Of a stretch of DNA of 64,000 nt, positions 8,145 through 59,783 are shown piece by piece. Location: assembly GCA_959608885.1 (NCBI GenBank), contig CAUHSG010000010.1, positions 2,441-66,440 of the forward strand. The letters are read 5' to 3'. Positions within the stretch are counted from its first letter, which is position 1. Each line of letters opens with the position of its first letter. Under the pieces are notes generated by a model that worked only from the letters and a program-made list of their open reading frames with translations, searched no databases and had not been told where the DNA came from. A program made the translations under genes and the position numbers. The stretch comes from an uncultured Coriobacteriia bacterium. Its GTDB lineage: Bacteria; Actinomycetota; Coriobacteriia; Coriobacteriales; QAMH01.

Positions 8145-8181
8145 AACCAGACAAAAGTGCCCCGGCAGCAATTGTCTGGTT
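8145..8181. repeat. REP-like palindromic element type 1 (orientation A)
   Basis: AACCAGACAAAAGTGCCCCGGCAGCAATTGTCTGGTT overlaps the serC stop codon. Confidence 0.85.
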
Positions 8182-9259
8182 ACTTGTTGTTGGCCTCGAA
8201 CTCGCCCATGAAGTCGACGAGTGCCCGCACACCCTCGATGGGCATGGCGTTGTAGATGCTCGCACGCATGCCACCCACGCTGCGATGGCCCTTGATGTTA
8301 GCCAGACCAGCGGCAGTCGCCTCGGCGATGAACTTCTTGTCGAGGTCTTCGTCGCCCGTAATGAACGGAACATTCATGATGGAGCGATCCTTGGGGTTGA
8401 CCGTGCTCGAGAACATGTCGCTCGCGTCAAGGAAGTCGTACAGGAGCTTGGCCTTGGCCTCGTTGCGCTCCTTCATGACCTCAAGACCGCCCAGCTCCTT
8501 GATCCACTTGAACACGAGACCGCACACGTAGATGCCGTAGCTCGGCGGCGTGTTGTAGAGGCTACCGCTATCGGCATGCGTCTTGAAGCGCAGCATGGTG
8601 GGCACGCCGGGAAGGTCGTCGGGAATAAGATCCTCGCGCACGATGACGATCTGGACGCCGGCCGGGCCGCAGTTCTTCTGCACGCCAGCGTGGATGAGAC
8701 CGTACTTGCTCACGTCAACCGGCTCGGAGAGGAACATGGAGCTCTGGTCGGACACGAGCACGTGACCCTTGGTGTTGGGCAGCGTGTAGATGCGGTTGCC
8801 GTAGACGGTCTCGTTCTCGCAGATGTAGACGAAGGACGCATCATCGCGAATGTCGAGGTCGGAGAGGTCGGGAATCCACGAGAAGTTGTCGCCCTCGCCG
8901 TTGACCAGCAACTTGGGATCACCGAGAATCTGGGCCTCCTTGTACGCCTTCTTGGACCAACCGCCGGTGACGATGTAATCGGCCTTGCCATTGGTGGCGA
9001 GGTTCATGAACACCGACGCGAAGAGCAGCGAGTCGCCACCCTGCAGGAAGAGCACCCTGTAGTTGTCCGGGATGGACAGCAGCTCGCGCAAATCCTGCTC
9101 GGCCTCGGTGATGATCTTCGTGAACGCAGCCGAACGATGGCTCATCTCCATGACGGACATGCCGGTGCCCTCGTAGTCGAGCATCTCGCCCGCCGTCTGC
9201 TTAAGGACCTCCTCGGGAAGAACCGCCGGACCGGCGGAGAAGTTGTACACGCGTGTCAT
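8180..9259 (-). CDS. serC: phosphoserine aminotransferase
   Basis: MTRVYNFSAGPAVLPEEVLKQ..MSVMEMSHRS is the typical SerC N-terminus; 359 aa. Confidence 0.95.
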   Translation of the reverse strand: MTRVYNFSAGPAVLPEEVLKQTAGEMLDYEGTGMSVMEMSHRSAAFTKIITEAEQDLRELLSIPDNYRVLFLQGGDSLLFASVFMNLATNGKADYIVTGGWSKKAYKEAQILGDPKLLVNGEGDNFSWIPDLSDLDIRDDASFVYICENETVYGNRIYTLPNTKGHVLVSDQSSMFLSEPVDVSKYGLIHAGVQKNCGPAGVQIVIVREDLIPDDLPGVPTMLRFKTHADSGSLYNTPPSYGIYVCGLVFKWIKELGGLEVMKERNEAKAKLLYDFLDASDMFSSTVNPKDRSIMNVPFITGDEDLDKKFIAEATAAGLANIKGHRSVGGMRASIYNAMPIEGVRALVDFMGEFEANNK

Positions 9260-9423: not shown

Positions 9424-9999
9424 CTAGGCGTTGATAATCGGCCTGATGATGCCGTAGCCGCCATTCTTGCGATGGTAGATGACCTGAATCTGGTGTGCGT
9501 CCTGGTCGAAGTAGACGAAGAAGTCGTGGCCGAGCAGGTCGGTCTGCACGAGCGCATGCTCCTCGGTCATCGGCTCCATCTCGACTTCCTTCAAACGCAC
9601 AAGCAAATCGTCGTCCTCTTCGGGCTCGGTCGGGATGACATCGGGGATATCGAGCTCATCGGGCTGGAGATGGCGAATGCTACCCCTGCCACCACGACGC
9701 TCCACGATCCTCGTCTTGTACTTGCGCAGCTGACGGGCGACCTTGTCGGACGCCAGGTCGATGGCCGCGTACATGTCCTCCGCGGACTCGGCCACGCGAA
9801 TGACGGCACCCTTGGCGTTGACCGTGACCTCGCAAATGGCGTTGAGCGAAATCGCCGGGTTCTTCTCGGTGCGCAGCACAACCTCTGCGTCCATGGCGGC
9901 GCTGTCGAAGACCTCGAGCGAGCGGCCAATCTTCTCGTCGACATAATCCCTGATGGCGGGCGTAACGTTCATCTTACGTCCCGAAACTGTGATAGCCAT
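9424..9999 (-). CDS. hpf: ribosome hibernation promoting factor (long HPF)
   Basis: MAITVSGRKMNVTPAIRDYVDEKI start, long-form C-terminal domain, and a GGAGG RBS upstream. Confidence 0.9.
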   Translation of the reverse strand: MAITVSGRKMNVTPAIRDYVDEKIGRSLEVFDSAAMDAEVVLRTEKNPAISLNAICEVTVNAKGAVIRVAESAEDMYAAIDLASDKVARQLRKYKTRIVERRGGRGSIRHLQPDELDIPDVIPTEPEEDDDLLVRLKEVEMEPMTEEHALVQTDLLGHDFFVYFDQDAHQIQVIYHRKNGGYGIIRPIINA

Positions 10000-10032: not shown

Positions 10033-11034
10033 TTATTCGTCGCCGGCTTGCTGACCCGCATCCTCCTCACCTGAGTCTTCCGGCGTGTCGGAATTCGGTT
10101 CGTCCGGGTTTGCCTGACCCTGCTGATCGCCGGCACCAAACGCCTTTGCCGGCAATGTTGCCAGGTCGGTCTTGCCCGCAAGCAGCGTATCCCCATCGGA
10201 ACCAAGCCACTTGGTCGCGATAACGCGCATGACACCATTCGCGTTAATCGTCTTGACGGCGGCATTGACCCCGCTGGAAAGCGCGGAGTTTTGCGTGAGG
10301 GTTACGGCGTAGATGGGCGTGACGCAATCGGCACCCAGAAAGCCCATGCGGATGATGTTCTCGTAGTTGCGTGCGAAGTAGTCACCGAGAACCGCATCGG
10401 TGACGAGGAACTTCTGCTCGCCATCGTTGAGCGCGTCGAACGCATCCTGCATAGTGGGCATGGCAACGACCTTATCGATGCCGAGAAGCTCCTGCACCTT
10501 GCTCGCCGCGGTCGTGTCTGCCTGCACGAGCACCTTGGCAGTGCCGGCATTGGCCTGTGCGGCAACGTCCTCGATGGAAACGGGCTTGTTGGTGCTCAGG
10601 CAGAAGAGCGAGAGACCATCAGTAAGGTAGGAGTCGCTATAGGAGACAAGGTCGCCCGTACCGGACTTGGTGAGCCCGAGCGCGACATCGACCTGCTTGT
10701 TGCTGAGGGCGAAGCGACCACTCGACCCCACATCGACGATCTGCATGCGCAGTCCAAGTTCCTGGGCGATGGCCGCGGCGACATCGACATCGATGCCAAC
10801 GGTCTGGTTGCTCGAATTGGTGCCACCGTACGGCGAGTTGCTCGCGTTGATGCCAACGGTGAGCACTCCCTCGGTGATGGTCGCCGAAGCATCGAGCTTG
10901 GGCGACAGATTGCTCTCAACCTGGGTATTGGTTTGGAGCTGGCATGCCGACAGGCCCATCACGGCAAACATGCAGGCAACGAGCGCCACGACGACTGCGG
11001 ATATTCCCTTGTGTTTGATTTGCTTTGCGAACAT
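10033..11034 (-). CDS. ABC transporter substrate-binding lipoprotein (amino-acid/SBP_bac_3-like) with acidic C-terminal tail
   Basis: I chose start MFAKQIKHKG. Lipobox-like GLSAC, then LTVGINASNSPYGG..QIVDVGSSGRF. The tail is D/E/Q-rich. Confidence 0.75.
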   Translation of the reverse strand: MFAKQIKHKGISAVVVALVACMFAVMGLSACQLQTNTQVESNLSPKLDASATITEGVLTVGINASNSPYGGTNSSNQTVGIDVDVAAAIAQELGLRMQIVDVGSSGRFALSNKQVDVALGLTKSGTGDLVSYSDSYLTDGLSLFCLSTNKPVSIEDVAAQANAGTAKVLVQADTTAASKVQELLGIDKVVAMPTMQDAFDALNDGEQKFLVTDAVLGDYFARNYENIIRMGFLGADCVTPIYAVTLTQNSALSSGVNAAVKTINANGVMRVIATKWLGSDGDTLLAGKTDLATLPAKAFGAGDQQGQANPDEPNSDTPEDSGEEDAGQQAGDE

Positions 11035-11347
11035 CTTGCTCCGTTTGTCATGTGCCAGTGGAAGCGCTCCTCCCAACTGACCTGGTTTTTGACCCCACAC
11101 TCGCATACAGAAACTTTTGCCTGATACTATCTCACTACTCATTTTCTCGCCCGGGACACCGTATGTGACCTTAACGGACGGTACGTCTTACCCCTAAGAT
11201 GCGCCATGCTCGCGACCAGGAAACCCTGCCCGTTTACGTGGATCCTTTCGACCGCATCTGCCTTGGACTAGAACTGTTTTACCAGCTCGCAACCACAGAC
11301 TTGGGAGGAGCGAGTCTAGTGTATCACGCGGCAGATAATCGCGTGCG

Positions 11348-13636
11348 CTAGATTCTCCTCAAAACGAAGCAATGGTGGACCTTGGCATGTCGCTCGAAAT
11401 CCAAGGGTATGGTCTTGTCGGTGATGTTCACGACCTGCACGCCCGCACGTTCGATCGTCTCGCGGTCGAGCTTGAATCCACGTAGATTACACGAGAACAC
11501 CGCAGCACCCCCACGTGTCAGCAAGCGGCTCACGCCGATGAGCAGCTCGGCGTGGTCGCGCTGGACATCCCAGCCACGTTGGCGCATCTTCGCGGAGTTC
11601 GAGAAGGTGGGCGGATCGACGAAGATGAGGTCCCAGCGCATCTTCGTATGACGCGTCTGCTGGACCCACTCGACGCAATCGGCGCGCACGAACTCCTGAT
11701 GCCCGTTCATGAGACCGTTGAGTTCCATGTTGCGCTCGCCCCATTGCAGGTAGGTGTTCGAGAGGTCCACGCTCGTCGTGAACTTCGCCCCGCGCGCAGC
11801 GGCGTAGACGCTCGCCGTGCAGGTGTAGGCGAAGAGGTTGAGGAAGCTCTTGCCCGCGGCAAGCTTGCCGACGAGCTCGCGCGTATCACGATGGTCGAGG
11901 AAGAGCCCTGTGTCGAGATAGCTCGCGAGGTCGACTTCGAACAGCAGGCCGTTCTCCTGCGTGACGAGATGCCCGACCGGGCTGGATGAGTCAGACTGGT
12001 CAGCCCAGAAATCTGTCGCCGGGGCTGTTTTGTCGGGTGTTTTGACAGGCATCTTGGAACCAGACAAAACTGCCCCGGCGACTTTTGTCTGGTTCGCGTA
12101 TTGCGAGCCACCTTTGGCGCGCACGCGGCGCTTCACGAAGACGTCGTCTGCGGAAACGCCGAGTACGACGCTTGCGATGTTGAGGGCATCGGTCATGCGA
12201 CGAGCAGCCTTGCCGGCATCGATGCTCTTGGGAGGCGCGTACTCGGCGACATGCACGAGCCACCTGCCCGCATCCTTGCCCGCCCCTTCATAGAGGTCGA
12301 TGGCCATGTTGTAATCGGGCAAATCGGCATCGTATACACGGTAGGCCGAGACCTTGTTCTTGGCGGCCCATTTACGACGCTGCTTGTAGACCTTGTTGAG
12401 ACGGTCGGCGAATTGCTGGGAACCCGCATCGTAAACGGCGATGTCGCAATCTCGCACGTTCACCTGCGCGCGACGCCCCGCATCACCATGCAGGTCGAAG
12501 AGCGCGATTTCGCAAGAAGCGGAACCGTTCATGCATGCGAAGCCCTCGCTGCGCTCCATGCCCAGGTACGCATCGGCATCTTTGCCACCCACAAGCATGA
12601 CAGCGCAATCGAGCTGCTCGCATCCGAGAAGCTGTCGCGCAAGCTGCGCATAGCTTGCGGGCAAGATCGCCTCGGGGACCTCCGTGCCAACAAAAAGACA
12701 GCTCGCAAACATACCGCGTGTATCGGCGTGACGAGCAAGAGCGTCATCCAGGGCATCCTGGCTCGGCGCGAACTCGATGAGCGAAGCAACGGCAGCGGCC
12801 CTAGCACGCGCTTGCGCACAGGCTATCTCGCGATCGCGATCATCCGTTGCGTATATCACGACCTCTTTCGAACCTTCCTGGGCTCGCATGTCAGCCGCAT
12901 CGAGCACGTCGGTCCACAGCTTCTCGTCATGCCCAGACCAGCTGGTGAATCCCCAGCTAGAACGCATGATACCAGGTGCCCTATCACCGGCTATCAGCGC
13001 CGCCTCGATGGCAAGCGTACCCGCGGCGCACATGCTATCTACGAGCAGCTCGCCATGGCGCGCACGCTCGGGCCAACCCGCCGCAAGCAACATGGCCGCC
13101 GCAAGCGTCTCGTGTATGAAGGGAGAGGTGCTCCGCATGGCATCACGATACCCGCGGTCCTCGAGCGAGGTACCCGAGAGGTCGATGTAGATGGTTGCGC
13201 GCCTGGCATGCAGGTTCACCTGGATGCGCAGATCGGGATGCTGCGTATCAACATCGGGGCGTACGCCACGAAGCTCGCGCAAGCGGTCGCAGACGGCGTC
13301 CTTCACGCGTAGCGCTGTAAAGCGCGTGTCTCGAAGCTCGTCATTCGCCCCTCGGGCGCTTACGGCGATGGTCGCGTCCGGGGCGACATGCTCTTCCCAG
13401 GCGATGCCACGCACGCCAACATAGAGGCTGTCGGAATCCCTCGCCTCGACACGCCCGACTACCAACAGGATGCGGCTCGCAACGCGTGACCACAACAGCG
13501 CCGTGTACGCCTGCTCTAACCCAGCCTTAAACGCGACGCCGCCGGTCAGAGGACGAACCTCGTCCATCCCCAGCTCGCGCAGCTCCTGGCCAAGAACCGC
13601 CTCGAGCCCCGTGCCACATGTCGCAAAGAGCTCCAT
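11348..13636 (-). CDS. rlmL: fused 23S rRNA methyltransferase RlmKL-like (THUMP + two SAM-MTase modules)
   Basis: N-terminus MELFATCGTGLEAVLGQELRELG..(THUMP), DSMCAAGTLAIEAAL, and C-terminal MTase motif IFVDPPTFSNS. The inter-domain linker is encoded by REP doublet 12004-12094. Confidence 0.85.
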   Translation of the reverse strand: MELFATCGTGLEAVLGQELRELGMDEVRPLTGGVAFKAGLEQAYTALLWSRVASRILLVVGRVEARDSDSLYVGVRGIAWEEHVAPDATIAVSARGANDELRDTRFTALRVKDAVCDRLRELRGVRPDVDTQHPDLRIQVNLHARRATIYIDLSGTSLEDRGYRDAMRSTSPFIHETLAAAMLLAAGWPERARHGELLVDSMCAAGTLAIEAALIAGDRAPGIMRSSWGFTSWSGHDEKLWTDVLDAADMRAQEGSKEVVIYATDDRDREIACAQARARAAAVASLIEFAPSQDALDDALARHADTRGMFASCLFVGTEVPEAILPASYAQLARQLLGCEQLDCAVMLVGGKDADAYLGMERSEGFACMNGSASCEIALFDLHGDAGRRAQVNVRDCDIAVYDAGSQQFADRLNKVYKQRRKWAAKNKVSAYRVYDADLPDYNMAIDLYEGAGKDAGRWLVHVAEYAPPKSIDAGKAARRMTDALNIASVVLGVSADDVFVKRRVRAKGGSQYANQTKVAGAVLSGSKMPVKTPDKTAPATDFWADQSDSSSPVGHLVTQENGLLFEVDLASYLDTGLFLDHRDTRELVGKLAAGKSFLNLFAYTCTASVYAAARGAKFTTSVDLSNTYLQWGERNMELNGLMNGHQEFVRADCVEWVQQTRHTKMRWDLIFVDPPTFSNSAKMRQRGWDVQRDHAELLIGVSRLLTRGGAAVFSCNLRGFKLDRETIERAGVQVVNITDKTIPLDFERHAKVHHCFVLRRI
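12004..12094. repeat. REP doublet (REPIN-like; copy B 12004-12037 degenerate, copy A 12058-12094) inside the rlmKL ORF
   Basis: CCCAGAAATCTGTCGCCGGGGCTGTTTTGTCGGG, a 20-nt spacer, then AACCAGACAAAACTGCCCCGGCGACTTTTGTCTGGTT. It is translated as QTKVAGAVLSGSKMPVKTPDKTAPATDFW. Confidence 0.85.
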
Positions 13637-13651
13637 GACAATCCGCTCCGC

Positions 13652-14707
13652 TTAGTTTTTCGAGAAGAAGCCGTCGATGGGCGGCGGACTTCCGTGCGAA
13701 CGGCCGGATGAACCCGGCGCGTCGTTATCATCGAAATAGTCCGAAGCGCCGAAGAATTCGTCGAGTCGCTCGCAGCGCTCGTTGAAACCGTCAGCTAACG
13801 CCCAGTCCAGGCCGTAATCGGCGCACGTCTGCTCGTCTTCGTAGAGCAGGGCGAGCGCCTGGATGTTCATTTCCTCCCCGCCAACGGCCTGCAACAGCTC
13901 ATAAAGCTGGTAAGCGGTCTCGGTCATGGGGATGGTCACCTCAAGCTCCTCGGCAGTATCGAGCGCCACGTCGAGCATGTCGAGAAAGGCAGCGATGTTG
14001 ATGCGTCCCGTGTAATCGTGCCCGAGCACCTGCGGGATGTAGTCGACAAGCGCTCGCGAGCCACCCGAGGTCGATGCGAGCACGTTGAGCGCGTTCTTCT
14101 CGGGAAAACCCGCGATGTGCGCAAGCGAAATCGCCTCGATGGCGCCCATGAGCGAGCCGGCGAGCGCGATGATGCTGACCATCGCCGCGAACTGCCCGTC
14201 ACCCGCCGTCTCCTGCGGCATGACGATGGGCGCGAGAAACGGGAACAGCGGCGAGAGCGTGTTCTTCGTCTGTGGATCCCCGCCCACGAATACGACGGCG
14301 CCCTCGCGCTCGCCCACGCAGACAATGGGAGCGTCGAGCACCTCGATGTCGGAGACGGCGGCAACCGCCTGAATCTCGCGCGCGAGACGCGGGCTCGATA
14401 CGCTCAGATCGATGCAGAACGTGCCAGGATCCATGAGCTCGAGCAGTCCCTCGTCACCCAAGTACAGGTTCTCGACATCGGCGGTGGTGTGCAGCGAGGT
14501 GATGACAACCTGGCTGCCGAGCAAGGCCTCCATGCGATCGTCGATGAAGGTCGCGCCCACTTCGCGCAGGGCCGGAGCTTCGCGCGGATCGTGACTTGCA
14601 ACGACGACATCGAAGCCGGTAATCTTGAGCTTGGCAATCGCCTCGATGACGGCGGGCTGCGCCGCTCCGCCAAAGAACGCGATGCGTGTGTCGAGCGGGC
14701 TGATCAT
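13652..14707 (-). CDS. beta-hydroxyacid dehydrogenase (HIBADH/6PGDH-like) family protein with degenerate NAD motif and C-terminal extension
   Basis: Overall NAD_binding_2-like layout (..VVITSLHTTADVENLY.., ..LDAPI..GG..). The N-terminal glycine motif reads IAFFGGAAQPAV rather than GxGxxG. Confidence 0.55.
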   Translation of the reverse strand: MISPLDTRIAFFGGAAQPAVIEAIAKLKITGFDVVVASHDPREAPALREVGATFIDDRMEALLGSQVVITSLHTTADVENLYLGDEGLLELMDPGTFCIDLSVSSPRLAREIQAVAAVSDIEVLDAPIVCVGEREGAVVFVGGDPQTKNTLSPLFPFLAPIVMPQETAGDGQFAAMVSIIALAGSLMGAIEAISLAHIAGFPEKNALNVLASTSGGSRALVDYIPQVLGHDYTGRINIAAFLDMLDVALDTAEELEVTIPMTETAYQLYELLQAVGGEEMNIQALALLYEDEQTCADYGLDWALADGFNERCERLDEFFGASDYFDDNDAPGSSGRSHGSPPPIDGFFSKN

Positions 14708-18664: not shown

Positions 18665-19650
18665 AAAGCCTCCCTGATTTCTAAGAACATTGCGTCAATC
18701 GCAAGTTGCGGTGTCACATTATACGAGATGCGCGCCGCGGCCCTCTTGGCGGCATCGAGCGCGCTCAGCAAGCCTGCACTGCCCGTCGTCTGTGCGACAT
18801 ACGCGGTCTGACCGGCGCATTCGGGATATGCGAGCAGCTCGGAGCCCCCCTCACGCGTGACGAGGCAATCGCGCAGCCACGCACGCGTGAGCGCGCAGAA
18901 CTCGAATAGCGCCGCACGTTCATGTGCGGTTGCCTCGCGCTTGCCCGCGAGTTCGATTTGCTTCTTGGCACCTTGCGAGAGGTAATCGTCGTACTTCTCG
19001 ATATATGCCTCGACATCGAGGTCATCGTCGCCCATCTCCGCGGCTTTCTCACGCGCAAGCTCGACGAAGCGCTTGGAATTGCCGAGTAGCGTGCGATTGT
19101 TGCAATCGCGCGCAAGGGCGTAGAGCATGTCGAAGACCTGAGCGTTTCCGGCGCGTACGCCCGAAGCGGCATTGAGCACGAGTACCTCGCAGCGGCTGCG
19201 CAGCGTCTCGAGCACGGCAGATTCGCTGTTGGCGACGAGAATGCAGGTGACATCGTGCGGCGGCTCCTCAAGCGTCTTGAGGAAGGCGTTTGCCGGTGCC
19301 CCCGCCAGACGGTGGGCGTCCTGGATGATGTAGACCTTGTTCGCAGCACGGATGGGAGCAAGCTCGGCATCGTGCGTGAGCTCGCGGATCTGCTCGACGA
19401 GATAGCCATCCGCACCACCGGGCGTGCAAATGTGCAGGTCTGGATGGACGCGTCGCAGGGTCTCGTCTTGCGCCTGCGCATCACCGACCGCGATAAGCCC
19501 GGCGGCAAAGCGCAGCGCGATATCGGTGCCCAGCCTGTCGTCACCCCCGGCGATGAGATAGGCGTGCGTGGCGCTGCCCGTATCGTGCACGTGCTGCAGG
19601 TACGACGTCACCTGATCCTGCCCGACGATTCCCTCGAAGAGATCGCTCAT
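18655..19650 (-). CDS. holB: DNA polymerase III delta-prime subunit
   Basis: AYLIAGGD.. and FLKTLEEPPHDV motifs. ATG 19650 overlaps the tmk stop as ATGA. Confidence 0.8.
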   Translation of the reverse strand: MSDLFEGIVGQDQVTSYLQHVHDTGSATHAYLIAGGDDRLGTDIALRFAAGLIAVGDAQAQDETLRRVHPDLHICTPGGADGYLVEQIRELTHDAELAPIRAANKVYIIQDAHRLAGAPANAFLKTLEEPPHDVTCILVANSESAVLETLRSRCEVLVLNAASGVRAGNAQVFDMLYALARDCNNRTLLGNSKRFVELAREKAAEMGDDDLDVEAYIEKYDDYLSQGAKKQIELAGKREATAHERAALFEFCALTRAWLRDCLVTREGGSELLAYPECAGQTAYVAQTTGSAGLLSALDAAKRAAARISYNVTPQLAIDAMFLEIREALCH

Positions 19651-20375
19651 GAGCGCTCCTCCGCCCCGGAATCCGCCGAACAAGACAAATGTCGCCGGGG
19701 CAGTTTTGTCTGGTTTCGCAGGTTCAGGTCAAGCAAATCGACGATGCCATCGCGAATGCGCTCGTGCACCTGCTCGACGCTTCCGTTTGCGTCGACGATG
19801 CGCACACGCTCGGGCTCGGCGGCGGCGATCTCATCAAAGCCCGCGCGCAGACGTGTGCGAAACGCATCGCCGGCAGACTCCATGCGATCACCCGTGCCAT
19901 CGGCAGAGCGGCTCTCGACGCGCTCGCGCGCGACATCGTCATCGAGCACGAGCAACAGCGTGCGATCCGGATAGCGACCGCCGCAGGCAAGATCGTTCGT
20001 GGAGCGCACGAGGTTCGCGCCAAGCTCGCGGCCGTAGCCCTGGTAAGCGAGCGTGGAGTCGGTGAAGCGATCGCAGACGACGACCTCGCCGCGTGCAAGG
20101 GCGGGCTCGATGACCTCGTCCATCACCTGGGCGCGCGCCGCTTCGAAGAGCAGGAGCTCGGCGAGCGGTGTCATCGCGTCATCTTCCTTATCGAGGAGTA
20201 GCGCGCGGATCTTCTCGCCTAGGCGCGTACCGCCCGGCTCGTGCACGCGCAGCACCGTGCGACCCTGCTGCTCGAGCCAGCTGGCGAGAAGGTCGGCCTG
20301 CGTCGACTTGCCAACGCCGTCGTCGCCTTCGAGCGTGAGGAATATGCCCTCGGTGCTATCTGGTTTGCTATCCAT
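19647..20375 (-). CDS. tmk: thymidylate (dTMP) kinase with REP-encoded C-terminal extension
   Basis: P-loop LEGDDGVGKSTQ. The last ~26 residues (RNQTKLPRRHLSCSADSGAEERS) are read through REP 19681-19715. Confidence 0.9.
   Translation of the reverse strand: MDSKPDSTEGIFLTLEGDDGVGKSTQADLLASWLEQQGRTVLRVHEPGGTRLGEKIRALLLDKEDDAMTPLAELLLFEAARAQVMDEVIEPALARGEVVVCDRFTDSTLAYQGYGRELGANLVRSTNDLACGGRYPDRTLLLVLDDDVARERVESRSADGTGDRMESAGDAFRTRLRAGFDEIAAAEPERVRIVDANGSVEQVHERIRDGIVDLLDLNLRNQTKLPRRHLSCSADSGAEERS
19681..19715. repeat. REP-like palindromic element type 1 (orientation B) inside the tmk 3' end
   Basis: CAAGACAAATGTCGCCGGGGCAGTTTTGTCTGGTT. Confidence 0.85.
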
Positions 20376-22976: not shown

Positions 22977-23957
22977 ATGGCTTACAATTACCCGCGGATA
23001 CAGGCGGGCGGGGCCGAAAGGCCTCAGTTGCTCGATTTTAACCATATATATAAGGTTCTGGCTACCTCCATTTTGGAAACGATTAGCCCCACGCGCTGTG
23101 TCGTATGCGACGAGCCCGGCGATGTCCTCTGCGCACGCTGCGCCGCCTCCCTCCCCTTCATCGACCTCGCGCTTGCGTGCTCGCGTTGCGGCGCACCCTA
23201 TGGGCATGCGCTGTGCACCGAGTGCCCCATGCCCGGCAGCGAGGCTGCGCTGCAGCATCCCGAAGAGGCGTTCCCGTTCACGCGCGCGCGGGCGGCACTT
23301 TCGTTCGAAGAAGGCGCGAAGAAGGTCATCCGTACCTACAAGGACGGTGACGAGCTGCGACTCGACGCAGTCATCGCGTCGATCATCTGCTCCGCGATCC
23401 GCATGAGACAAATGGACAGGTCACTTGTCTCACTATCGACAGGTACCAGTAATTTTTGGGACAAATGGACAGGTCATTTGTCTCAAAGCTTCAGCGAGGC
23501 AGAGCAGAGTCAAGAAATCGCCTCGCCCCCTCTTCGCGACTGGTCACAATGGGCAGGTGCGCTCGTGTACGTCCCGGCTTCGCCCGAAGCGTTGTTGAGA
23601 CGCGGGTTCGACCACATGGAGCGCGTGGCACGGATTGTTGCGCAACGCACGGGGCTGCCACTCGTGCGGGCACTCGAAAGCGGCAAGGGCGCGCAGGATC
23701 AACGCAATCTGGGGCGCAGCGAGCGATTGGCAAATCGCAGCGAAAGCTTTTCGCTGGCGGATAGCATGCGACCGGGAGCGCGGAGGACGGCTGACACGGG
23801 CAATCAGGCGGTGATGAGCGCGGATGTGGTGCCGCGGCGCATCATCCTCATCGATGACGTCTTCACGACAGGCGCGACGCTCTCGGCAGCAACGCGGGTG
23901 CTCCTCGGCGGTGGCGCTCACGAGGTCCGTGTCGTCACTTGCTGCCGCGTGTGGTGA
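22977..23957 (+). CDS. comF: ComF family protein (PRTase-like), start uncertain
   Basis: N-terminal CVVCDEPGDVLCARC..CSRCGAPYGHALCTEC and C-terminal PRT motif ILIDDVFTTGATL. The middle contains two type-2 hairpin repeats read in frame. Confidence 0.75.
   Translation: MAYNYPRIQAGGAERPQLLDFNHIYKVLATSILETISPTRCVVCDEPGDVLCARCAASLPFIDLALACSRCGAPYGHALCTECPMPGSEAALQHPEEAFPFTRARAALSFEEGAKKVIRTYKDGDELRLDAVIASIICSAIRMRQMDRSLVSLSTGTSNFWDKWTGHLSQSFSEAEQSQEIASPPLRDWSQWAGALVYVPASPEALLRRGFDHMERVARIVAQRTGLPLVRALESGKGAQDQRNLGRSERLANRSESFSLADSMRPGARRTADTGNQAVMSADVVPRRIILIDDVFTTGATLSAATRVLLGGGAHEVRVVTCCRVW
23404..23485. repeat. two type-2 hairpin repeats (23404-23432 and 23458-23485) inside comF
   Basis: TGAGACAAATGGACAGGTCACTTGTCTCA and GGGACAAATGGACAGGTCATTTGTCTCA. 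Confidence 0.8.
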
Positions 23958-23991
23958 CCAGACAATTGTCGCCGGGGCACTTTTGTCTTAT
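23957..23991. repeat. REP-like palindromic element type 1 (orientation B)
   Basis: ACCAGACAATTGTCGCCGGGGCACTTTTGTCTTAT starts at the last base of the comF stop codon. Confidence 0.85.
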
Positions 23992-24146
23992 TCGCCCGGT
24001 TACGAACCACTTGTCACATCAAGAAGAGCTTGGAACTCAGGGCAAGTCCGATATTGCTCGGTTATCAGTCTGCTATCAATCGGCTTTCATTCCATAATCG
24101 TCCAGATTGCTGGGGTAGATGTCTCGGCGCTCTCCCACATAGCATG

Positions 24147-24180
24147 GGACAAATGTCGCCGGGGCACTTTTGTCTGGTTT
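24147..24180. repeat. REP-like palindromic element type 1 (orientation B)
   Basis: GGGACAAATGTCGCCGGGGCACTTTTGTCTGGTT, 39 nt upstream of the RAYT ATG. Confidence 0.85.
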
Positions 24181-24218
24181 CGAGACATTTGCCACATTAC
24201 GATGAGATGGGAGTCCGC

Positions 24219-24971
24219 ATGTCCAAACATCGAATAAAAAGTGAGGGAGATATCTATCATGTAACCTCACGAGGAACAGGAAAACAGCTGATCTTTGAAG
24301 ATGACGATGACCGCCGGTTTTTTCTCCGCCTGCTTCACGAGACCCTTTCGAGTCACGCCGTCGATCTGTACGCCTGGTGCTTGATGGACAATCATTTTCA
24401 TTTGCTTCTTCATGGCGCGCTCGAAACCGTATCACTATGCATGCGTCATCTTTGCAGCAGCTATGCACGCCGATTCAACGAAAGAGCCGGTCGCACGGGA
24501 CATCTCTTTCAGGGGCGTTTCGGAAGTGAGGCAATCGATACCGACGCCTATTTGCTAATTGTCGTCAGGTACATTCACAAGAATCCCGAGAAGGCGGGGC
24601 TCGCGCACACTTCAGCGTATCGCTGGTCAAGCTACCGAGAGTATCTCGGGCATCCGACACTCTGTAAAACGCAGTTCGTCCTTGATGTATTTGGTGACAA
24701 GCAGGCGTTCGCAAGTTTTCATGCGCAGAATGACGAAGAGGCCGGATGTCTGGATGTTGACATGTCCAGAATGGCAAAGAGAAAAGCAATTGACGCACGG
24801 GCACTTCGCAAGGCGCAGAGAGTCATGGCTGGTATGAAATTGACCGACCTCAAGACGCTCCCGAAGAAAACCCGCGATGCACATCTTCGTGACATGAAAC
24901 GGTCCGGCCTTTCCATTCGCCAGATAGAGCGACTCACCGGAATAGGGCGCAATGTAGTCGCCAACGCATAA
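24219..24971 (+). CDS. rayT: REP-associated tyrosine transposase (RAYT; IS200/IS605-like Y1 HUH enzyme) with C-terminal DnaA_C-like HTH
   Basis: HUH motif CLMDNHFHLLLHG and Tyr motif VRYIHKNPEKAGL. The C-terminus SGLSIRQIERLTGIGRNVVANA is HTH-like. ATG 24219 is preceded by GATGGGAG. Confidence 0.85.
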   Translation: MSKHRIKSEGDIYHVTSRGTGKQLIFEDDDDRRFFLRLLHETLSSHAVDLYAWCLMDNHFHLLLHGALETVSLCMRHLCSSYARRFNERAGRTGHLFQGRFGSEAIDTDAYLLIVVRYIHKNPEKAGLAHTSAYRWSSYREYLGHPTLCKTQFVLDVFGDKQAFASFHAQNDEEAGCLDVDMSRMAKRKAIDARALRKAQRVMAGMKLTDLKTLPKKTRDAHLRDMKRSGLSIRQIERLTGIGRNVVANA

Positions 24972-25005
24972 TCAGACAAAACTGCTCCGGCGACTTTTGT
25001 CTCAT
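24971..25005. repeat. REP-like palindromic element type 1 (orientation A)
   Basis: ATCAGACAAAACTGCTCCGGCGACTTTTGTCTCAT overlaps the stop codons of both the RAYT gene and the convergent NhaC gene. Confidence 0.85.
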
Positions 25006-26300
25006 TTGCGGTTGAGGGCGATGCTGATGAGCACGCAGGCAAGCAACAGGAACTGGTAGAACAAGAACGGCATGATCTCGATGCTCGCGATGCCGGCGAG
25101 ACTCGCTGCGACGAGAAGCTGCGCGCCGTAGGGGATGATGCCCTGCCCGATGCAGCTGAAGATGTCGATGAGGCTCGCGACGCGCACGGGCTCGATACCG
25201 TACTCCTCGCCGATGTGCTTGGCGATGGGACCGGAAACCACGATGGCTACCGTATTGTTCGCGCAGGCTACGTCGAGCAGCAGCGTGAGCAGGCCACAGC
25301 CGAGCTCGCCACCGCGCTTGCCGGTGAAATGCCGCTTGATGAAGGCCAAAATGGACGCGAAGCCCCCGTGCTCCCGCATGAGCGCGCTGATCGATGCCAC
25401 CAGAATCGTGACGATCATCGTCTCGAACATGCCCGCCGTTCCCGTGCCCATGGCCGAGAACGCGCTCGCGAAATCGAGCGATCCCGTCACCGTGCCCACG
25501 ATGGCGAACAGCACGATGCCGCCGCCAAGCACGAGAAAGACGTTGATGCCGCACAACGCAGCGATGAGCACGACGAAGTACGGAATCGCCTGCCAGATGT
25601 TGTACTCGAAATCGTCGAGCGAGGGCGTGCCGGCCATAATCGCCATCACGATGAGAATGCCGAGCGTGATGAGCGCCGCCGGCAAGGCGATGTGGAAGTT
25701 GTTGAAGAACTTATCCTTCATGTTGACGCCCTGCGTGCGGGTCGCCGCGATCGTGGTATCCGAGATGAACGAGAGGTTGTCGCCGAACATCGCGCCGCCC
25801 ACGACGGTTCCCACGCACAGCGGCAGGTTGAAGCCCGCGCTGGCTGCGACCGTCACCGCAATGGGCGTGAGCACCGTGATAGTTCCCACGCTCGTGCCCA
25901 TGGCGAGCGAGATGATGCAGGCGATGACGAAGAGGCCGGGGATGGCCGCCTGGGCGGGCAGGATGTCGAGCAGCAGGTTCGCCGTGCTCTCGGCCCCGCC
26001 GGCCGCGCTCGCGATGCCGGAAAACGCACCGGCCATCAGGAAGATGAAGAGCATGATGACGATGTTGTCGTCACCGATGCCGCGTGCGCACACGTGAATC
26101 TTCTCGTCGAAGGACAGCGAACGGTTCTGCAGGAACGCGACGACGAGCGCGATAACGAAGGCCACGACGACGCTCACCACGTAGAAGCCCATCTGTCCTT
26201 CGGCGGGAGCGATGTACTCGAAATAGATGCCGCACCCGAGGTATAGCACCAGGAAGACGACGATGGGCAGCAATGCCTTTGCGTTTGGTTTCTTATCCAT
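25002..26300 (-). CDS. Na+/H+ antiporter NhaC family
   Basis: Polytopic membrane protein with NhaC-like segments (GDNLSFISDTTI, FSCIGQGIIPYGAQLL). I chose start MDKKPNAK; 26318 is an alternative. Confidence 0.8.
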   Translation of the reverse strand: MDKKPNAKALLPIVVFLVLYLGCGIYFEYIAPAEGQMGFYVVSVVVAFVIALVVAFLQNRSLSFDEKIHVCARGIGDDNIVIMLFIFLMAGAFSGIASAAGGAESTANLLLDILPAQAAIPGLFVIACIISLAMGTSVGTITVLTPIAVTVAASAGFNLPLCVGTVVGGAMFGDNLSFISDTTIAATRTQGVNMKDKFFNNFHIALPAALITLGILIVMAIMAGTPSLDDFEYNIWQAIPYFVVLIAALCGINVFLVLGGGIVLFAIVGTVTGSLDFASAFSAMGTGTAGMFETMIVTILVASISALMREHGGFASILAFIKRHFTGKRGGELGCGLLTLLLDVACANNTVAIVVSGPIAKHIGEEYGIEPVRVASLIDIFSCIGQGIIPYGAQLLVAASLAGIASIEIMPFLFYQFLLLACVLISIALNRK

Positions 26301-29460: not shown

Positions 29461-30111
29461 ATGGCTCACATCGACCTGGAAACCAAGATTCTGAACAAGA
29501 ATGACGAAGGCGCTGCGGCAAATCGCGCCCTGCTCGACGAGAAGGGCATCTACATGGTCAACGTGCTGGCGAGCCCCGGGTCGGGCAAGACCTCGACCAT
29601 CGTGGCGACCATCAATGCGCTGCGCGACAAATACAACATTGCCGTCATCGAGGGCGATATCGCGAGCGACGTCGATTCGCAGACCATCAAGGCCCTGGGT
29701 ATTCCCGCGGTGCAGATCAACACTGCCGGTGCCTGTCATCTCGAGAGCGACATGCTGCGTCGCGCCCTTGACGTGCTCGACTTGGACGACATCGACCTCA
29801 TCTTCATCGAAAACGTGGGGAACCTCGTATGCCCGGCGGACTTCTACCTGGGCGAGAATATCAAGATGATGATCCTGTCGGTGCCCGAAGGCGATGACAA
29901 GCCACTCAAGTACCCCGGCATGTTCCAGGTGGCCGATGCCATCATCCTCAACAAGGTCGACGTGATGCCGGCCTTCACCTTTGACAAGGCGCTTTTCGAC
30001 GAGCACATCGAGCGCCTCAACCCTGGCGCGCCGAGCTTTGCCATCGCCGCAACCAAGGGTGACGGCGTTGACGAGTGGGCCGACTGGCACTCTGCCCAGA
30101 TCCACAAATGA
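29461..30111 (+). CDS. hypB: hydrogenase nickel-incorporation GTPase HypB
   Basis: ASPGSGKTS P-loop, IEGDIAS and IENVGNLVCP motifs. ATG 29461 follows GAGAGAGAAGGA. Confidence 0.9.
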   Translation: MAHIDLETKILNKNDEGAAANRALLDEKGIYMVNVLASPGSGKTSTIVATINALRDKYNIAVIEGDIASDVDSQTIKALGIPAVQINTAGACHLESDMLRRALDVLDLDDIDLIFIENVGNLVCPADFYLGENIKMMILSVPEGDDKPLKYPGMFQVADAIILNKVDVMPAFTFDKALFDEHIERLNPGAPSFAIAATKGDGVDEWADWHSAQIHK

Positions 30112-30198
30112 GACAAAGGCCGCCGGGGCGCTTTTGTCTGGTTGTGGGACCGGCGTCTCGAAACCAGACAAAAGCGCCCCGGCGGCATTTGTCTGGTT
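30109..30198. repeat. REP doublet (REPIN-like; B copy 30109-30143, A copy 30162-30198)
   Basis: TGAGACAAAGGCCGCCGGGGCGCTTTTGTCTGGTT, an 18-nt spacer, then AACCAGACAAAAGCGCCCCGGCGGCATTTGTCTGGTT. It lies between convergent hypB and ahcY. Confidence 0.9.
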
Positions 30199-35301: not shown

Positions 35302-35337
35302 GTCGTGCTTTCTTCCTCTCCGCGCCTTTGATTCCGA

Positions 35338-35368
35338 ATGAGACAGATGCTCTGAGCAGCTGTCTCAT
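35338..35368. repeat. type-2 hairpin repeat between feoA and feoB
   Basis: ATGAGACAGATGCTCTGAGCAGCTGTCTCAT. Confidence 0.8.
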
Positions 35369-35446
35369 TTGTTAGCAACAACTAACAGCAGTGCAAAAAG
35401 ATGGCCTGGCATAAGGGGGTAGCCAGCCCATCGTCTTACCGAGTGG

Positions 35447-36054: not shown

Positions 36055-36080
36055 GCCAGCTCTCCCCTGGCCGCCGCGGG

Positions 36081-36114
36081 ACCAGACAATTCCGCCCCGG
36101 CGGCTTTTGTCTGG
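36081..36114. repeat. REP-like palindromic element type 1 (orientation A)
   Basis: ACCAGACAATTCCGCCCCGGCGGCTTTTGTCTGG. Confidence 0.85.
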
Positions 36115-39353: not shown

Positions 39354-40256
39354 ATGCGCCAACATCGCAAGAATGAGACAAATGCCCTGGGCAAATGTCT
39401 CATTTTGCTGCTCGTCGCAGCGCTCGCGCTGTTGCCGGGATGCTCATCGGCGCTGTCATCGCTGCCAACGACGGGACTCCCCTCGGGCGTCGAGTACACC
39501 GATCTTGGCACCCCCAACTTTGGCGAGCTTGCCGGACAAACCGAATCCTTCGAGGAGTACAGCCCGCTTGACGCGCTGGGGCGCTGTGGTGCGGCGACCG
39601 CGTGCATCGGTCGTGACCTCATGCCCACCAAGGAGCGGGGGCAGATCAGCTCCATCAAGCCCACGGGCTGGCAGCGCGCCGAGTACGACTTCATCGACGG
39701 CGGCCTGCTCTACAATCGCTGCCACCTCATCGCCTACAGCCTCACCGCCGAAGACCTCAACGAGCGAAACCTCATCACTGGCACGCGGCAGATGAACCTC
39801 GCGATGACCGAGTTCGAGAAACTCGTGTGCGACTACGTGGAAGACACCGGCAATCACGTGCTATACCGGGTCACGCCCGTATTCGAGGGCGTCGAGCTCG
39901 TCGCGCGGGGCGTGCAGATGGAGGCACTTTCCATGGAGGATAACGGCGAGGCTATCTGCTTCAACGTCTTCATCCCCAACGAACAAGACGGCGTTGGCAT
40001 TGACTATCTAACAGGGTATAGCTGGCTAGCTGGAGAGAGTGGAGGCACGGGCTCGAAGAACGGCGAAGGCGCTGCCGGGAGAAGTGGCGACGAGACCACG
40101 TGCGTCTACGTGCTCAACACGAGCAGTAAGCGCTTCCACCTCCCCACCTGCGATTCCGTCCCCACCATCAGCGCGAAGAACAAAGCCGAAAGTGATAAGT
40201 CCCGTGACGAATTGATAGCCGAGAGCTACAAGCCCTGCGGCAGCTGCAAGCCGTAG
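39354..40256 (+). CDS. secreted lipoprotein DNA/RNA nuclease (EndA/DNA-entry-nuclease-like) with C-terminal Cys motif domain
   Basis: Lipobox LLPGC, nuclease core YNRCHLIAYSL..ITGTRQMN, and C-terminus RFHLPTCDS..YKPCGSCKP. The signal n-region is encoded by type-2 repeat 39373-39403. Confidence 0.8.
   Translation: MRQHRKNETNALGKCLILLLVAALALLPGCSSALSSLPTTGLPSGVEYTDLGTPNFGELAGQTESFEEYSPLDALGRCGAATACIGRDLMPTKERGQISSIKPTGWQRAEYDFIDGGLLYNRCHLIAYSLTAEDLNERNLITGTRQMNLAMTEFEKLVCDYVEDTGNHVLYRVTPVFEGVELVARGVQMEALSMEDNGEAICFNVFIPNEQDGVGIDYLTGYSWLAGESGGTGSKNGEGAAGRSGDETTCVYVLNTSSKRFHLPTCDSVPTISAKNKAESDKSRDELIAESYKPCGSCKP
39373..39403. repeat. type-2 hairpin repeat inside the nuclease signal-peptide coding region
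   Basis: ATGAGACAAATGCCCTGGGCAAATGTCTCAT, translated as NETNALGKCLI. Confidence 0.8.
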
Positions 40257-59330: not shown

Positions 59331-59406
<76 letters not shown>

Positions 59407-59428: not shown

Positions 59429-59464
59429 AACCAGACAAAAGCGCTCCGGCGACATTTGTCTGGT
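59429..59464. repeat. REP-like palindromic element type 1 (orientation A) between the two tRNAs
   Basis: AACCAGACAAAAGCGCTCCGGCGACATTTGTCTGGT. Confidence 0.85.
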
Positions 59465-59488
59465 GCGCATTTGCCTCCAAGTATCAAT

Positions 59489-59527
59489 AAACGCCCCGGC
59501 GGCGACTCGGCCCACGCCGGGGCGTTT
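59489..59527 (-). terminator. long GC hairpin downstream of tRNA-Ile
   Basis: AAACGCCCCGGCG..CGCCGGGGCGTTT, followed on the minus strand by ATTGAT. Confidence 0.55.
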
Positions 59528-59538
59528 ATTACCTAGAA

Positions 59539-59615
59539 TGGTGGGCCTTACAAGATTCGAACTTGTGACCTCACGATTATCAGTCGTGCGCTCTAGCCAA
59601 CTGAGCTAAAGGCCC
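59539..59615 (-). tRNA. tRNA-Ile (anticodon GAU)
   Basis: The reverse complement is GGGCCTTTAGCTCAGTTGGCTAGAGCGCACGACTGATAATCGTGAGGTCACAAGTTCGAATCTTGTAAGGCCCACCA. Acceptor stem GGGCCTT/AAGGCCC, anticodon loop CT-GAT-AA, and an encoded CCA. Confidence 0.9.
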
Positions 59616-59729
59616 GCGCAAATACGCGAGCATGTATGTTGCCACAATCTTAGTGCCTTGGGAAGCGTTTATTCGAGAAAGTTTGCTTCGTTTCCGTGGA
59701 AGTGCCCCGCAAACAACACGAGTGGCCCG

Positions 59730-59762
59730 ATGAGACAGCTTGGTCAGACCAAACTGTCTCAT
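59730..59762. repeat. type-2 hairpin repeat downstream of gyrA
   Basis: ATGAGACAGCTTGGTCAGACCAAACTGTCTCAT is a nearly perfect 15-bp hairpin. Confidence 0.85.
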
Positions 59763-59783
59763 CCATTTGCTTCTACCGTCCGT

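Follow-up and report, generated by a model that had tools for sequence, protein, structure and literature searches.

A REPIN-like doublet of dispersed palindromes translated within the rRNA methyltransferase gene rlmKL of an uncultured Coriobacteriia bacterium

Repetitive extragenic palindromes (REPs) are extragenic by definition, and to our knowledge housekeeping genes that have taken up palindromic repeats in frame have so far been treated as a peculiarity of Rickettsia. Here we analyzed a stretch of 64,000 nucleotides from an uncultured Coriobacteriia bacterium (GenBank assembly GCA_959608885.1, contig CAUHSG010000010.1, positions 2,441 to 66,440; hereafter the window), in which two inverted copies of a dispersed REP hairpin lie inside the open reading frame (ORF) of rlmKL, the gene for a predicted 23S rRNA methyltransferase, and are translated in frame. 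The described systems that come closest are Rickettsia palindromic elements (RPEs), described as mobile palindromes of about 150 bp lying in frame in unrelated housekeeping genes (Ogata et al. 2000, 2002; PMC10969869), REP doublets forming hairpins (REPINs) with their REP-associated tyrosine transposases (RAYTs) (Bertels & Rainey 2011, PMC3116915; PMC3337134), and the intragenic in-frame fusions of enterobacterial repetitive intergenic consensus (ERIC) sequences and other MITEs, which are miniature inverted-repeat transposable elements (Delihas 2007, in PMC10969869).

By analogy, the closest described behaviour is that of the RPEs. In both cases short palindromic repeats are translated as an extra peptide at sites compatible with the protein fold, and this occurs in several genes of one genome. 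Unlike RPEs, the insert in rlmKL measures 93 bp instead of about 150 bp and derives from two REP hairpins of about 37 nt, the host is a free-living gut actinobacterium (Coriobacteriaceae) where that of the RPEs is an obligate intracellular alphaproteobacterium, the genome has a candidate RAYT, and one loop combines many hairpin subfamilies across species with a presence/absence polymorphism within a species; the likeness is one of behaviour only, and no sequence relationship is expected. With REPINs and RAYTs the locus shares an inverted REP pair that forms one long hairpin with its short spacer, a family that is overwhelmingly extragenic, an IS200-like Y1 transposase gene (here a candidate) flanked by REPs, and an apparent loss of the doublet as a unit, comparable to the excision in Pseudomonas fluorescens SBW25 (PMC3116915). 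However, REPINs are described as extragenic whereas this doublet is translated inside a coding sequence, its REP combines an A/T-rich stem with a conserved 'loop' rich in G+C (GCCGGGGC) and carries no GTAG or CGTC tag, the RAYT candidate narrowly misses the NCBIfam cutoff, the host belongs to the Coriobacteriia, and the exact doublet was seen only at rlmKL. The ERIC and MITE fusions resemble our case as small non-autonomous repeats with open frames inside genes, but they belong to different families, and the MITE hallmarks, terminal inverted repeats together with a true target-site duplication, are not clearly present here. A literature search on REPs in Coriobacteriia or Collinsella found nothing.

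We consider it very probable that rlmKL contains a REPIN-like REP doublet which is translated as a disordered loop extension, is polymorphic, and was probably ancestral to the species before being lost in a sub-lineage. The doublet is built, like a REPIN, of two inverted copies of the main REP hairpin of the genome and an 18-nt spacer, 93 bp in total; it lies in frame and leaves the catalytic and fold-defining regions of RlmKL intact, and its family is otherwise almost entirely extragenic, with a candidate RAYT flanked by the same repeats. The parts (a REP doublet, a permissive loop, a probable slippage deletion) are mechanistically ordinary and the setting is unusual: a REPIN-like doublet translated within a conserved rRNA methyltransferase, a natural pair of filled and empty alleles otherwise identical in protein sequence, and different hairpin subfamilies at the same loop in every related species examined. 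Such a locus offers a natural system for studying the movement and deletion of REPs, the tolerance of an enzyme loop to insertion, and mobile hairpins as raw material for linkers.

The repeat core GTCGCCGGGGCAGTTTTGTC was found in 17 copies in the window (at most 3 mismatches), against 0 in 100 shuffles, and alignment of these copies gave the hairpin consensus AACCAGACAAAA-GTCGCCGGGGCAG-TTTTGTCTGGTT. Pairing in the stem reaches 81.5% over the 17 copies, and 4 pairs have changed on both sides; control stems whose partner was slid by 1-3 columns reach 34-50%. The copies are short imperfect palindromes, numerous and mostly outside genes, as expected of REPs: ORFs contain just 3 of the 17, the two rlmKL copies and one at the tail of tmk, and the other 14 are outside ORF interiors (P = 4.5e-12, on the basis of a coding share of about 90% by a crude gene call). 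At gathering thresholds, Rfam returned no family for the repeat and found only a raiA RNA and two tRNAs. Moreover, a second doublet between convergent genes (Table 1) aligns with the rlmKL doublet colinearly and without gaps over 37 + 18 + 37 nt, the spacers being identical at 12 of 18 positions; therefore the doublet architecture is a repeated unit, and inverted REPs joined by a spacer into one long hairpin recur at another locus, as in REPINs. As a separate observation, many of the copies adjoin a stop codon or provide it, and REP stems supply or overlap the stop codons of adjacent genes (8180-8182, 24969-24971, 25002-25004), the stops within the stems being TAA in TAACCAGAC and TGA in AATGAGACA, and one REP between convergent genes overlaps both of their stop codons. 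Other intergenic hairpins (35337-35369, 39370-39406, 59729-59763, 36070-36104) have the same GAGACA/TGTCTC stem as the main family and different interiors, which looks like a superfamily of at least five hairpin subfamilies within 64 kb.

The two inverted copies occupy 12005-12095 of the window, with core matches at 12015-12034 (plus strand, 1 mismatch) and 12063-12082 (minus strand, 0 mismatches) and inverted-repeat arms (12005-12038 and 12059-12092) that are 82% complementary; in the mRNA sense they fold into one long hairpin of -57.3 kcal/mol (z = -5.8). We refer to the copy that is 5' in the mRNA, which encodes the peptide NQTKVAGAVLSG, as copy a, and to the inverted one as copy b. In the canonical insert, carried by loci L022 and L023, both copies match the consensus perfectly around the 18-nt spacer and a perfect 7-bp direct repeat, ACCAGAC, brackets the element, while copy b of the window has about 10 substitutions relative to these loci. 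The fold energy of the linker is -83 kcal/mol in the canonical allele and -7.4 in the empty one, and the differences that the window allele has in copy b and its right flank weaken the hairpin from -83 to -61 kcal/mol. A paired change, AGACTGTCT to AGTCTGACT, is among the differences of the window allele from L022 and L023; on inspection by eye, an inversion or a template switch was considered for it. The initial annotation had proposed that a palindrome of about 90 bp was absorbed into the gene without breaking the frame, and that its 762-aa ORF runs uninterrupted across both REP copies; both claims hold, since ORF 11348-13636 is open throughout and a 97%-identical allele is without the insert, being shorter by exactly 93 bp (31 aa), and the peptide that it had quoted is correct by translation. 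None of the 6 frames of the REP unit contains a stop, 5 of the 6 frames of the doublet are open, and the rlmKL frame survives owing to this absence of stops from the unit together with a net length divisible by three (93 = 31 x 3). The canonical allele encodes the junction peptide VAGAVLSGSK and a tryptic peptide starting TAPATFVWSDQTVSSSPFGHLVTQENGLLFEVDL, and in an insert-free form the flanks GCGAACCAGAC and TGTCTCATCC would abut.

In our view there is next to no probability that errors of assembly or sequencing produced the doublet, or that it is a palindrome arisen by chance in a linker of low complexity. Palindromes do break assemblies, and metagenome contig L027 ends inside the rlmKL doublet (L027 1-60), so that this palindrome appears to break short-read assemblies too; nevertheless, at least 12 contigs of independent assemblies carry between them six 762-aa variants, copy a does not deviate from the consensus of a family with 17 copies, and the shuffled windows never matched the core. 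The sequencing error that had been named as a way to overturn the initial annotation is likewise countered by these variants. In practice, the doublet breaks assemblies, and length variation of RlmKL could pass for annotation error.

The product of ORF 11348-13636 is, as predicted from sequence, a homolog of the bifunctional 23S rRNA m7G2069/m2G2445 methyltransferase. It matches NCBIfam PRK11783 (NF008748) at full length (734.8 bits, cutoff 466, over positions 4-702 of the 704 in the model), carries the Pfam domains RlmL_1st, THUMP, UPF0020 and Methyltrans_SAM in the expected order, and in a PDB sequence search matches the E. coli YcbY/RlmKL chains (3v97, E = 3.7e-144). An AlphaFold2 model built with 76 homologs has a mean predicted local distance difference test (pLDDT) of 89.4 and 3v97_A as its best Foldseek match (E = 6.6e-72), and all 77 columns invariant among the 76 aligned homologs are kept in the window protein. 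Pfam, the secondary structure of the model and Foldseek agree on the order FLD/THUMP, methyltransferase (MTase) I, EEHEE, beta-hairpin and MTase II, the same as in E. coli RlmKL/YcbY, which the window protein matches over its full length (PDB 3V97, 3V8V; PMC3367195, PMC3351187). The full-length 762-aa protein would be made and active, and the insert neutral.

In the alignment with E. coli, residues 407-515 of the window protein correspond to E. coli 393-493 and residues 558-759 to E. coli 503-699, so that the insert maps to E. coli 493-503, where the window protein has 43 residues instead of 10, 31 of them encoded by the REPs. In YcbY the flexible hinge between the RlmL and RlmK halves comprises residues 383-392, and a short beta-hairpin separates the EEHEE domain from MTase II (PMC3367195). 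The hinge corresponds to about residues 397-406 of the window protein, and strands 556-561 and 564-569 of the model form a beta-hairpin downstream of the insert; the insert therefore follows the EEHEE domain and precedes the beta-hairpin, within the RlmK half, and the RlmL/RlmK hinge lies about 120 residues upstream of it. Residues 514-551 are the sole segment of the model with pLDDT below 50, and the insert is modelled as a 31-residue disordered extension of a surface loop. These results fit the tolerated linker insertion suggested by the initial annotation, and the comparison with orthologs confirms that the sequence is extra (43 residues against 10 in E. coli, and exactly 31 aa missing from a near-identical allele), but its placement between the N-terminal THUMP/MTase half and the C-terminal half is wrong. 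Its further idea, that the insertion fused or spaced the RlmL and RlmK halves, can be given practically no credence: apart from lying in a loop between domains, the insert offers nothing in its favour, the hinge lies far upstream, and an insert-free fused protein exists in the same species (P0002, P0136), in all relatives, in more than 100 homologs, and in E. coli.

The closest genome loci come from metagenome-assembled uncultured Coriobacteriia or Coriobacteriaceae of gut samples. Within the species the insert is polymorphic. Among 45 homologs, P0002 (731 aa) is nearly identical apart from a deficit of exactly 31 residues, and at the DNA level an exact 93-column gap separates the window rlmKL from loci L001 and L003, and again from L001 in a four-way alignment, the placement of the insert being free to slide by at most 8 nt owing to the flanking direct repeat. 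The alleles comprise six 762-aa variants (filled), of which five come in addition to the window protein from its 90%-identity cluster, and two 731-aa variants (empty), P0002 and, from the P0002 cluster, P0136. Across the 721 columns that they share, P0002 and the filled P0128 do not differ in any amino acid, and their genes differ at 8 nucleotides, whereas differences among the filled alleles reach 24 aa outside the indel; the empty alleles are therefore nested within the filled diversity. The doublet was probably present in the ancestor of the species and then recently and precisely lost in one sub-lineage. Short direct repeats around a strong hairpin are a classic setting for deletion by replication slippage. 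The loss would have removed precisely 93 bp between the ACCAGAC repeats, through replication slippage or, less likely, by RAYT-type excision, and slippage between the 7-bp repeats would account for the 93-bp polymorphism equally well without a transposase. REPIN doublets are reported to excise as units (PMC3116915).

The reverse polarity, in which the 731-aa allele is ancestral and the doublet transposed in recently, duplicated ACCAGAC and spread by recombination, seems to us unlikely. The perfect 7-bp direct repeat around the insert of L023 and the perfect consensus of both copies in most strains would suit a young insertion, but the empty alleles sit within one filled sub-lineage, and ACCAGAC is the stem start of the REP in every dispersed copy, hence part of the element and not of a target; the doublet at 30111-30194 has no flanking duplication, and the 'empty' site still has REP-arm-like sequence, AACCAGAC and TGTCTCAT. 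For the same two reasons, the 7-mer being REP stem and the second doublet lacking a duplication, we set aside the reading of the 7-mer as a MITE target-site duplication, and terminal inverted repeats with a target-site duplication at every copy were not found.

The same loop was then compared in related species by reading the linker DNA of their loci, at about nucleotides 1539-1680 of each gene. Every relative with at least 75% amino acid identity and DNA read has an in-frame hairpin, doublet or remnant at this loop, and the hairpins belong to at least seven sequence types (Table 1), while relatives at 53-57% identity have linkers of 45-54 nt with no such hairpin. The linker hairpins match dispersed intergenic hairpins of the window (29/33 to 59729-59763, 29/32 to 35337-35369, 25/29 to 23455-23487) better than any of 200 shuffles, and L005 has a second, intergenic copy of its own hairpin type at 924-958. 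In a sliding-window fold of 60 nt the minimum of the gene falls in the linker for L023, L024, L025 and L008, and not for the single-hairpin or remnant linkers of L004, L005, L012 and L019, whose hairpins rest on similarity to dispersed copies and not on energy. The RlmKL loop may thus be either a recurrent target or a long-occupied site refreshed from the repeat pool of each genome, a long-lived permissive landing pad in which REPs would have been inserted, nested, swapped and deleted across the clade (relatives at 75-85% amino acid identity). In L019 (4548-4594) and L010 (1039-1119) the palindrome runs past the repeat consensus into the conserved codons CTC ATC ACG CAG (LITQ), and it looks as if the left flank had been copied as an inverted complement of native coding sequence.

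The occupation of this exact loop in every such relative, by hairpins or remnants of at least seven types, and the persistence of doublets of -64 to -100 kcal/mol in four lineages, might also mean that the hairpin is kept for a function, as a translational pause, an RNase or terminator site, or a protein spacer tuning RlmK. We regard this as quite improbable: the peptide is not conserved between lineages, hairpin-free alleles occur naturally with no other difference in the protein, the linkers of distant relatives and E. coli measure 10-15 aa and contain no hairpin, and a terminator and promoter scan of 11000-14000 called nothing at the doublet, leaving an internal intrinsic terminator without support. 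A similar variable hairpin insert in an unrelated ComF-like protein, moreover, points to permissiveness rather than to a role specific to RlmKL.

In this ComF-like ORF two direct GACAGGT-type hairpins lie in frame between the zinc-ribbon and phosphoribosyltransferase parts. With 26 homologs aligned, the loop is hypervariable among close relatives and absent from distant ComFs, and in close orthologs it carries the stem-derived peptide signatures NET.. (AATGAGACA) and CLI (TGTCTCATT) that are also found in RlmKL linkers, for example DNETDWSDTSVSSS in the ComF-like protein P0170 and RNETVWSDTSVSF in the RlmKL of L005. The last 25 or so codons of the thymidylate kinase gene (tmk) read through a REP (19679-19715; ..RNQTKLPRRHLSCS..), which probably extended the reading frame, and the ORF ends on an ATGA overlap with the start of holB. 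In-frame insertion at fold-compatible sites of several unrelated genes, as known from RPEs, was thus found here, and in-frame hairpins are a recurrent feature of the clade (RlmKL, ComF-like, probably the Tmk tail). Rather tentatively, we propose that gut Coriobacteriaceae are a second, independent case of protein-coding palindromes, in which REPs and REPINs of many subfamilies repeatedly enter, nest in, replace one another in and precisely leave certain surface loops of housekeeping proteins (RlmKL, ComF, the Tmk tail) in frame. If so, this would be a natural polymorphism of protein length, and in an actinobacterial lineage the RlmKL loop would naturally report how REPINs are gained and lost and how active the RAYT is.

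A candidate RAYT gene of 250 codons lies 12 kb from the rlmKL doublet. Its product matches Pfam Y1_Tnp (IS200-like) with 44.2 bits against a cutoff of 23, the motifs YHVTSRG, NHFHLLL (HUH) and YIHKNPEKAGL, which include HUH and Tyr signatures, can be recognized by eye, and no PHROGs match was found. The G+C content at third codon positions is 0.53, compared with about 0.75-0.85 in neighbouring genes. One REP lies upstream of the gene, an inverted one overlaps its end, and a further copy is found nearby at 23953-23995; a Y1 transposase gene flanked by REPs is the arrangement described for RAYTs (PMC3116915, PMC3337134). The REPs may have been mobilized by this candidate.

Several observations weigh against our reading of rlmKL as carrying a REPIN-like doublet that was ancestral and then lost. 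The best NCBIfam match of the candidate RAYT, NF047646 (REP_Tyr_transpos), reaches 71.9 bits over positions 2-145 of 146, below the cutoff of 80, and a PDB sequence search with the candidate gave no match. For most REPs a tetranucleotide, GTAG or CGTC, is described as conserved at one of their ends (PMC3733652), and neither this tag nor its complement is present in the consensus AACCAGACAAATGTCGCCGGGGCACTTTTGTCTGGTTT. A metagenome scan with the spacer of the rlmKL doublet gave one match, another rlmKL contig; the spacer is therefore found only at rlmKL, a result that gives no evidence of multi-copy mobility for this very doublet. If strains exchanged alleles by homologous recombination, the empty alleles might look nested for that reason, which leaves loss as the probable and not the certain direction of the indel. 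As the main evidence in favour of a recent insertion, the outgroup L004 matches the left REP half at 23 of 23 nt whereas the flanking codons differ (4/24 nt), which argues for refreshment or re-insertion rather than passive inheritance. Finally, the window allele differs from its closest allele, L022, at 30 positions, 13 of which are packed into copy b and the right flank (11994-12040); this clustering may stem from gene conversion or template switching, or a perfect palindrome may be selected against.

Table 1. Position and structure of the rlmKL doublet, of related features in the window, and of the RlmKL linkers of related loci
Feature	Position	Strand	Details
rlmKL gene	11348..13636	minus	762-aa ORF without interruption
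In-frame insert, 93 bp, residues ~516-546	11995..12087	minus	93-column DNA gap and 31-aa protein gap relative to 731-aa alleles
REP copy a, 5' in mRNA	12057..12095	minus	perfect consensus AACCAGACAAAA-GTCGCCGGGGCAG-TTTTGTCTGGTT; 0 core mismatches; 13-15-bp stem
Spacer between copies a and b, 18 nt	12039..12056	minus	length equal and 12/18 identity to spacer of 30111-30194 doublet
REP copy b, inverted, 3' in mRNA	12005..12038	plus	decayed in window; perfect consensus in other strains
Left 7-bp direct repeat	12087..12093	minus	ACCAGAC (coding strand); also stem start of copy a
Right 7-bp direct repeat	11994..12000	minus	ACCAGTC in window; perfect ACCAGAC in L023; exactly 93 bp from left member
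Thymidylate kinase (tmk) ORF	19647..20375	minus	last ~25 codons read through REP
ComF-like ORF	22977..23957	plus	two direct GACAGGT-type hairpins in frame, 23404-23432 and 23455-23487
REP upstream of candidate RAYT	24140..24182	plus	
Candidate RAYT, 250 aa	24219..24971	plus	ORF open from 24030; likely start 24219
REP, inverted	24967..25009	minus	overlaps stops of candidate RAYT and convergent gene
Second REP doublet, 37 + 18 + 37 nt	30111..30194		intergenic between convergent genes (CobW-like, AdoHcyase); 33-nt arms
L004 linker			left half of same REP and 20-nt tandem repeat
L005, L006 linker			single hairpin, GGTCAGAC type
L008 linker			single hairpin, 18-bp stem
L007, L012 linker			single hairpin, one arm with 3-nt deletion
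L019 linker			single hairpin, CTCTGAG type
L010 linker			CTCTGAG-type doublet after left part of L025-type element (nested); -64 kcal/mol
L025 linker			doublet of another type; -71 kcal/mol
L024 linker			doublet of yet another type; -100 kcal/mol

Further features were recorded in the window, which has a G+C content of 60%. A raiA RNA motif (Rfam RF03072, 155 bits) lies on the minus strand at 11068-11309, between rlmKL and the downstream gene for a solute-binding protein, after which comes the gene for a ribosome hibernation factor (9424-9999). At 10033-11142 the longest ORF overlaps the raiA RNA, and therefore its real start is probably further downstream; its orthologs are called at 333 aa. 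The 90% protein cluster of P0001 includes P0121-P0125, P0130, P0131 and P0134, 'hypothetical proteins' of 45-48 aa (MVETGGIGEGGRATAG...) without resemblance to RlmKL, which are probably a clustering artefact of the collection. Two tRNA genes are located on the minus strand at 59334-59406 and 59542-59615, and between them lie a REP (59430-59464) and a strong hairpin (59486-59530).

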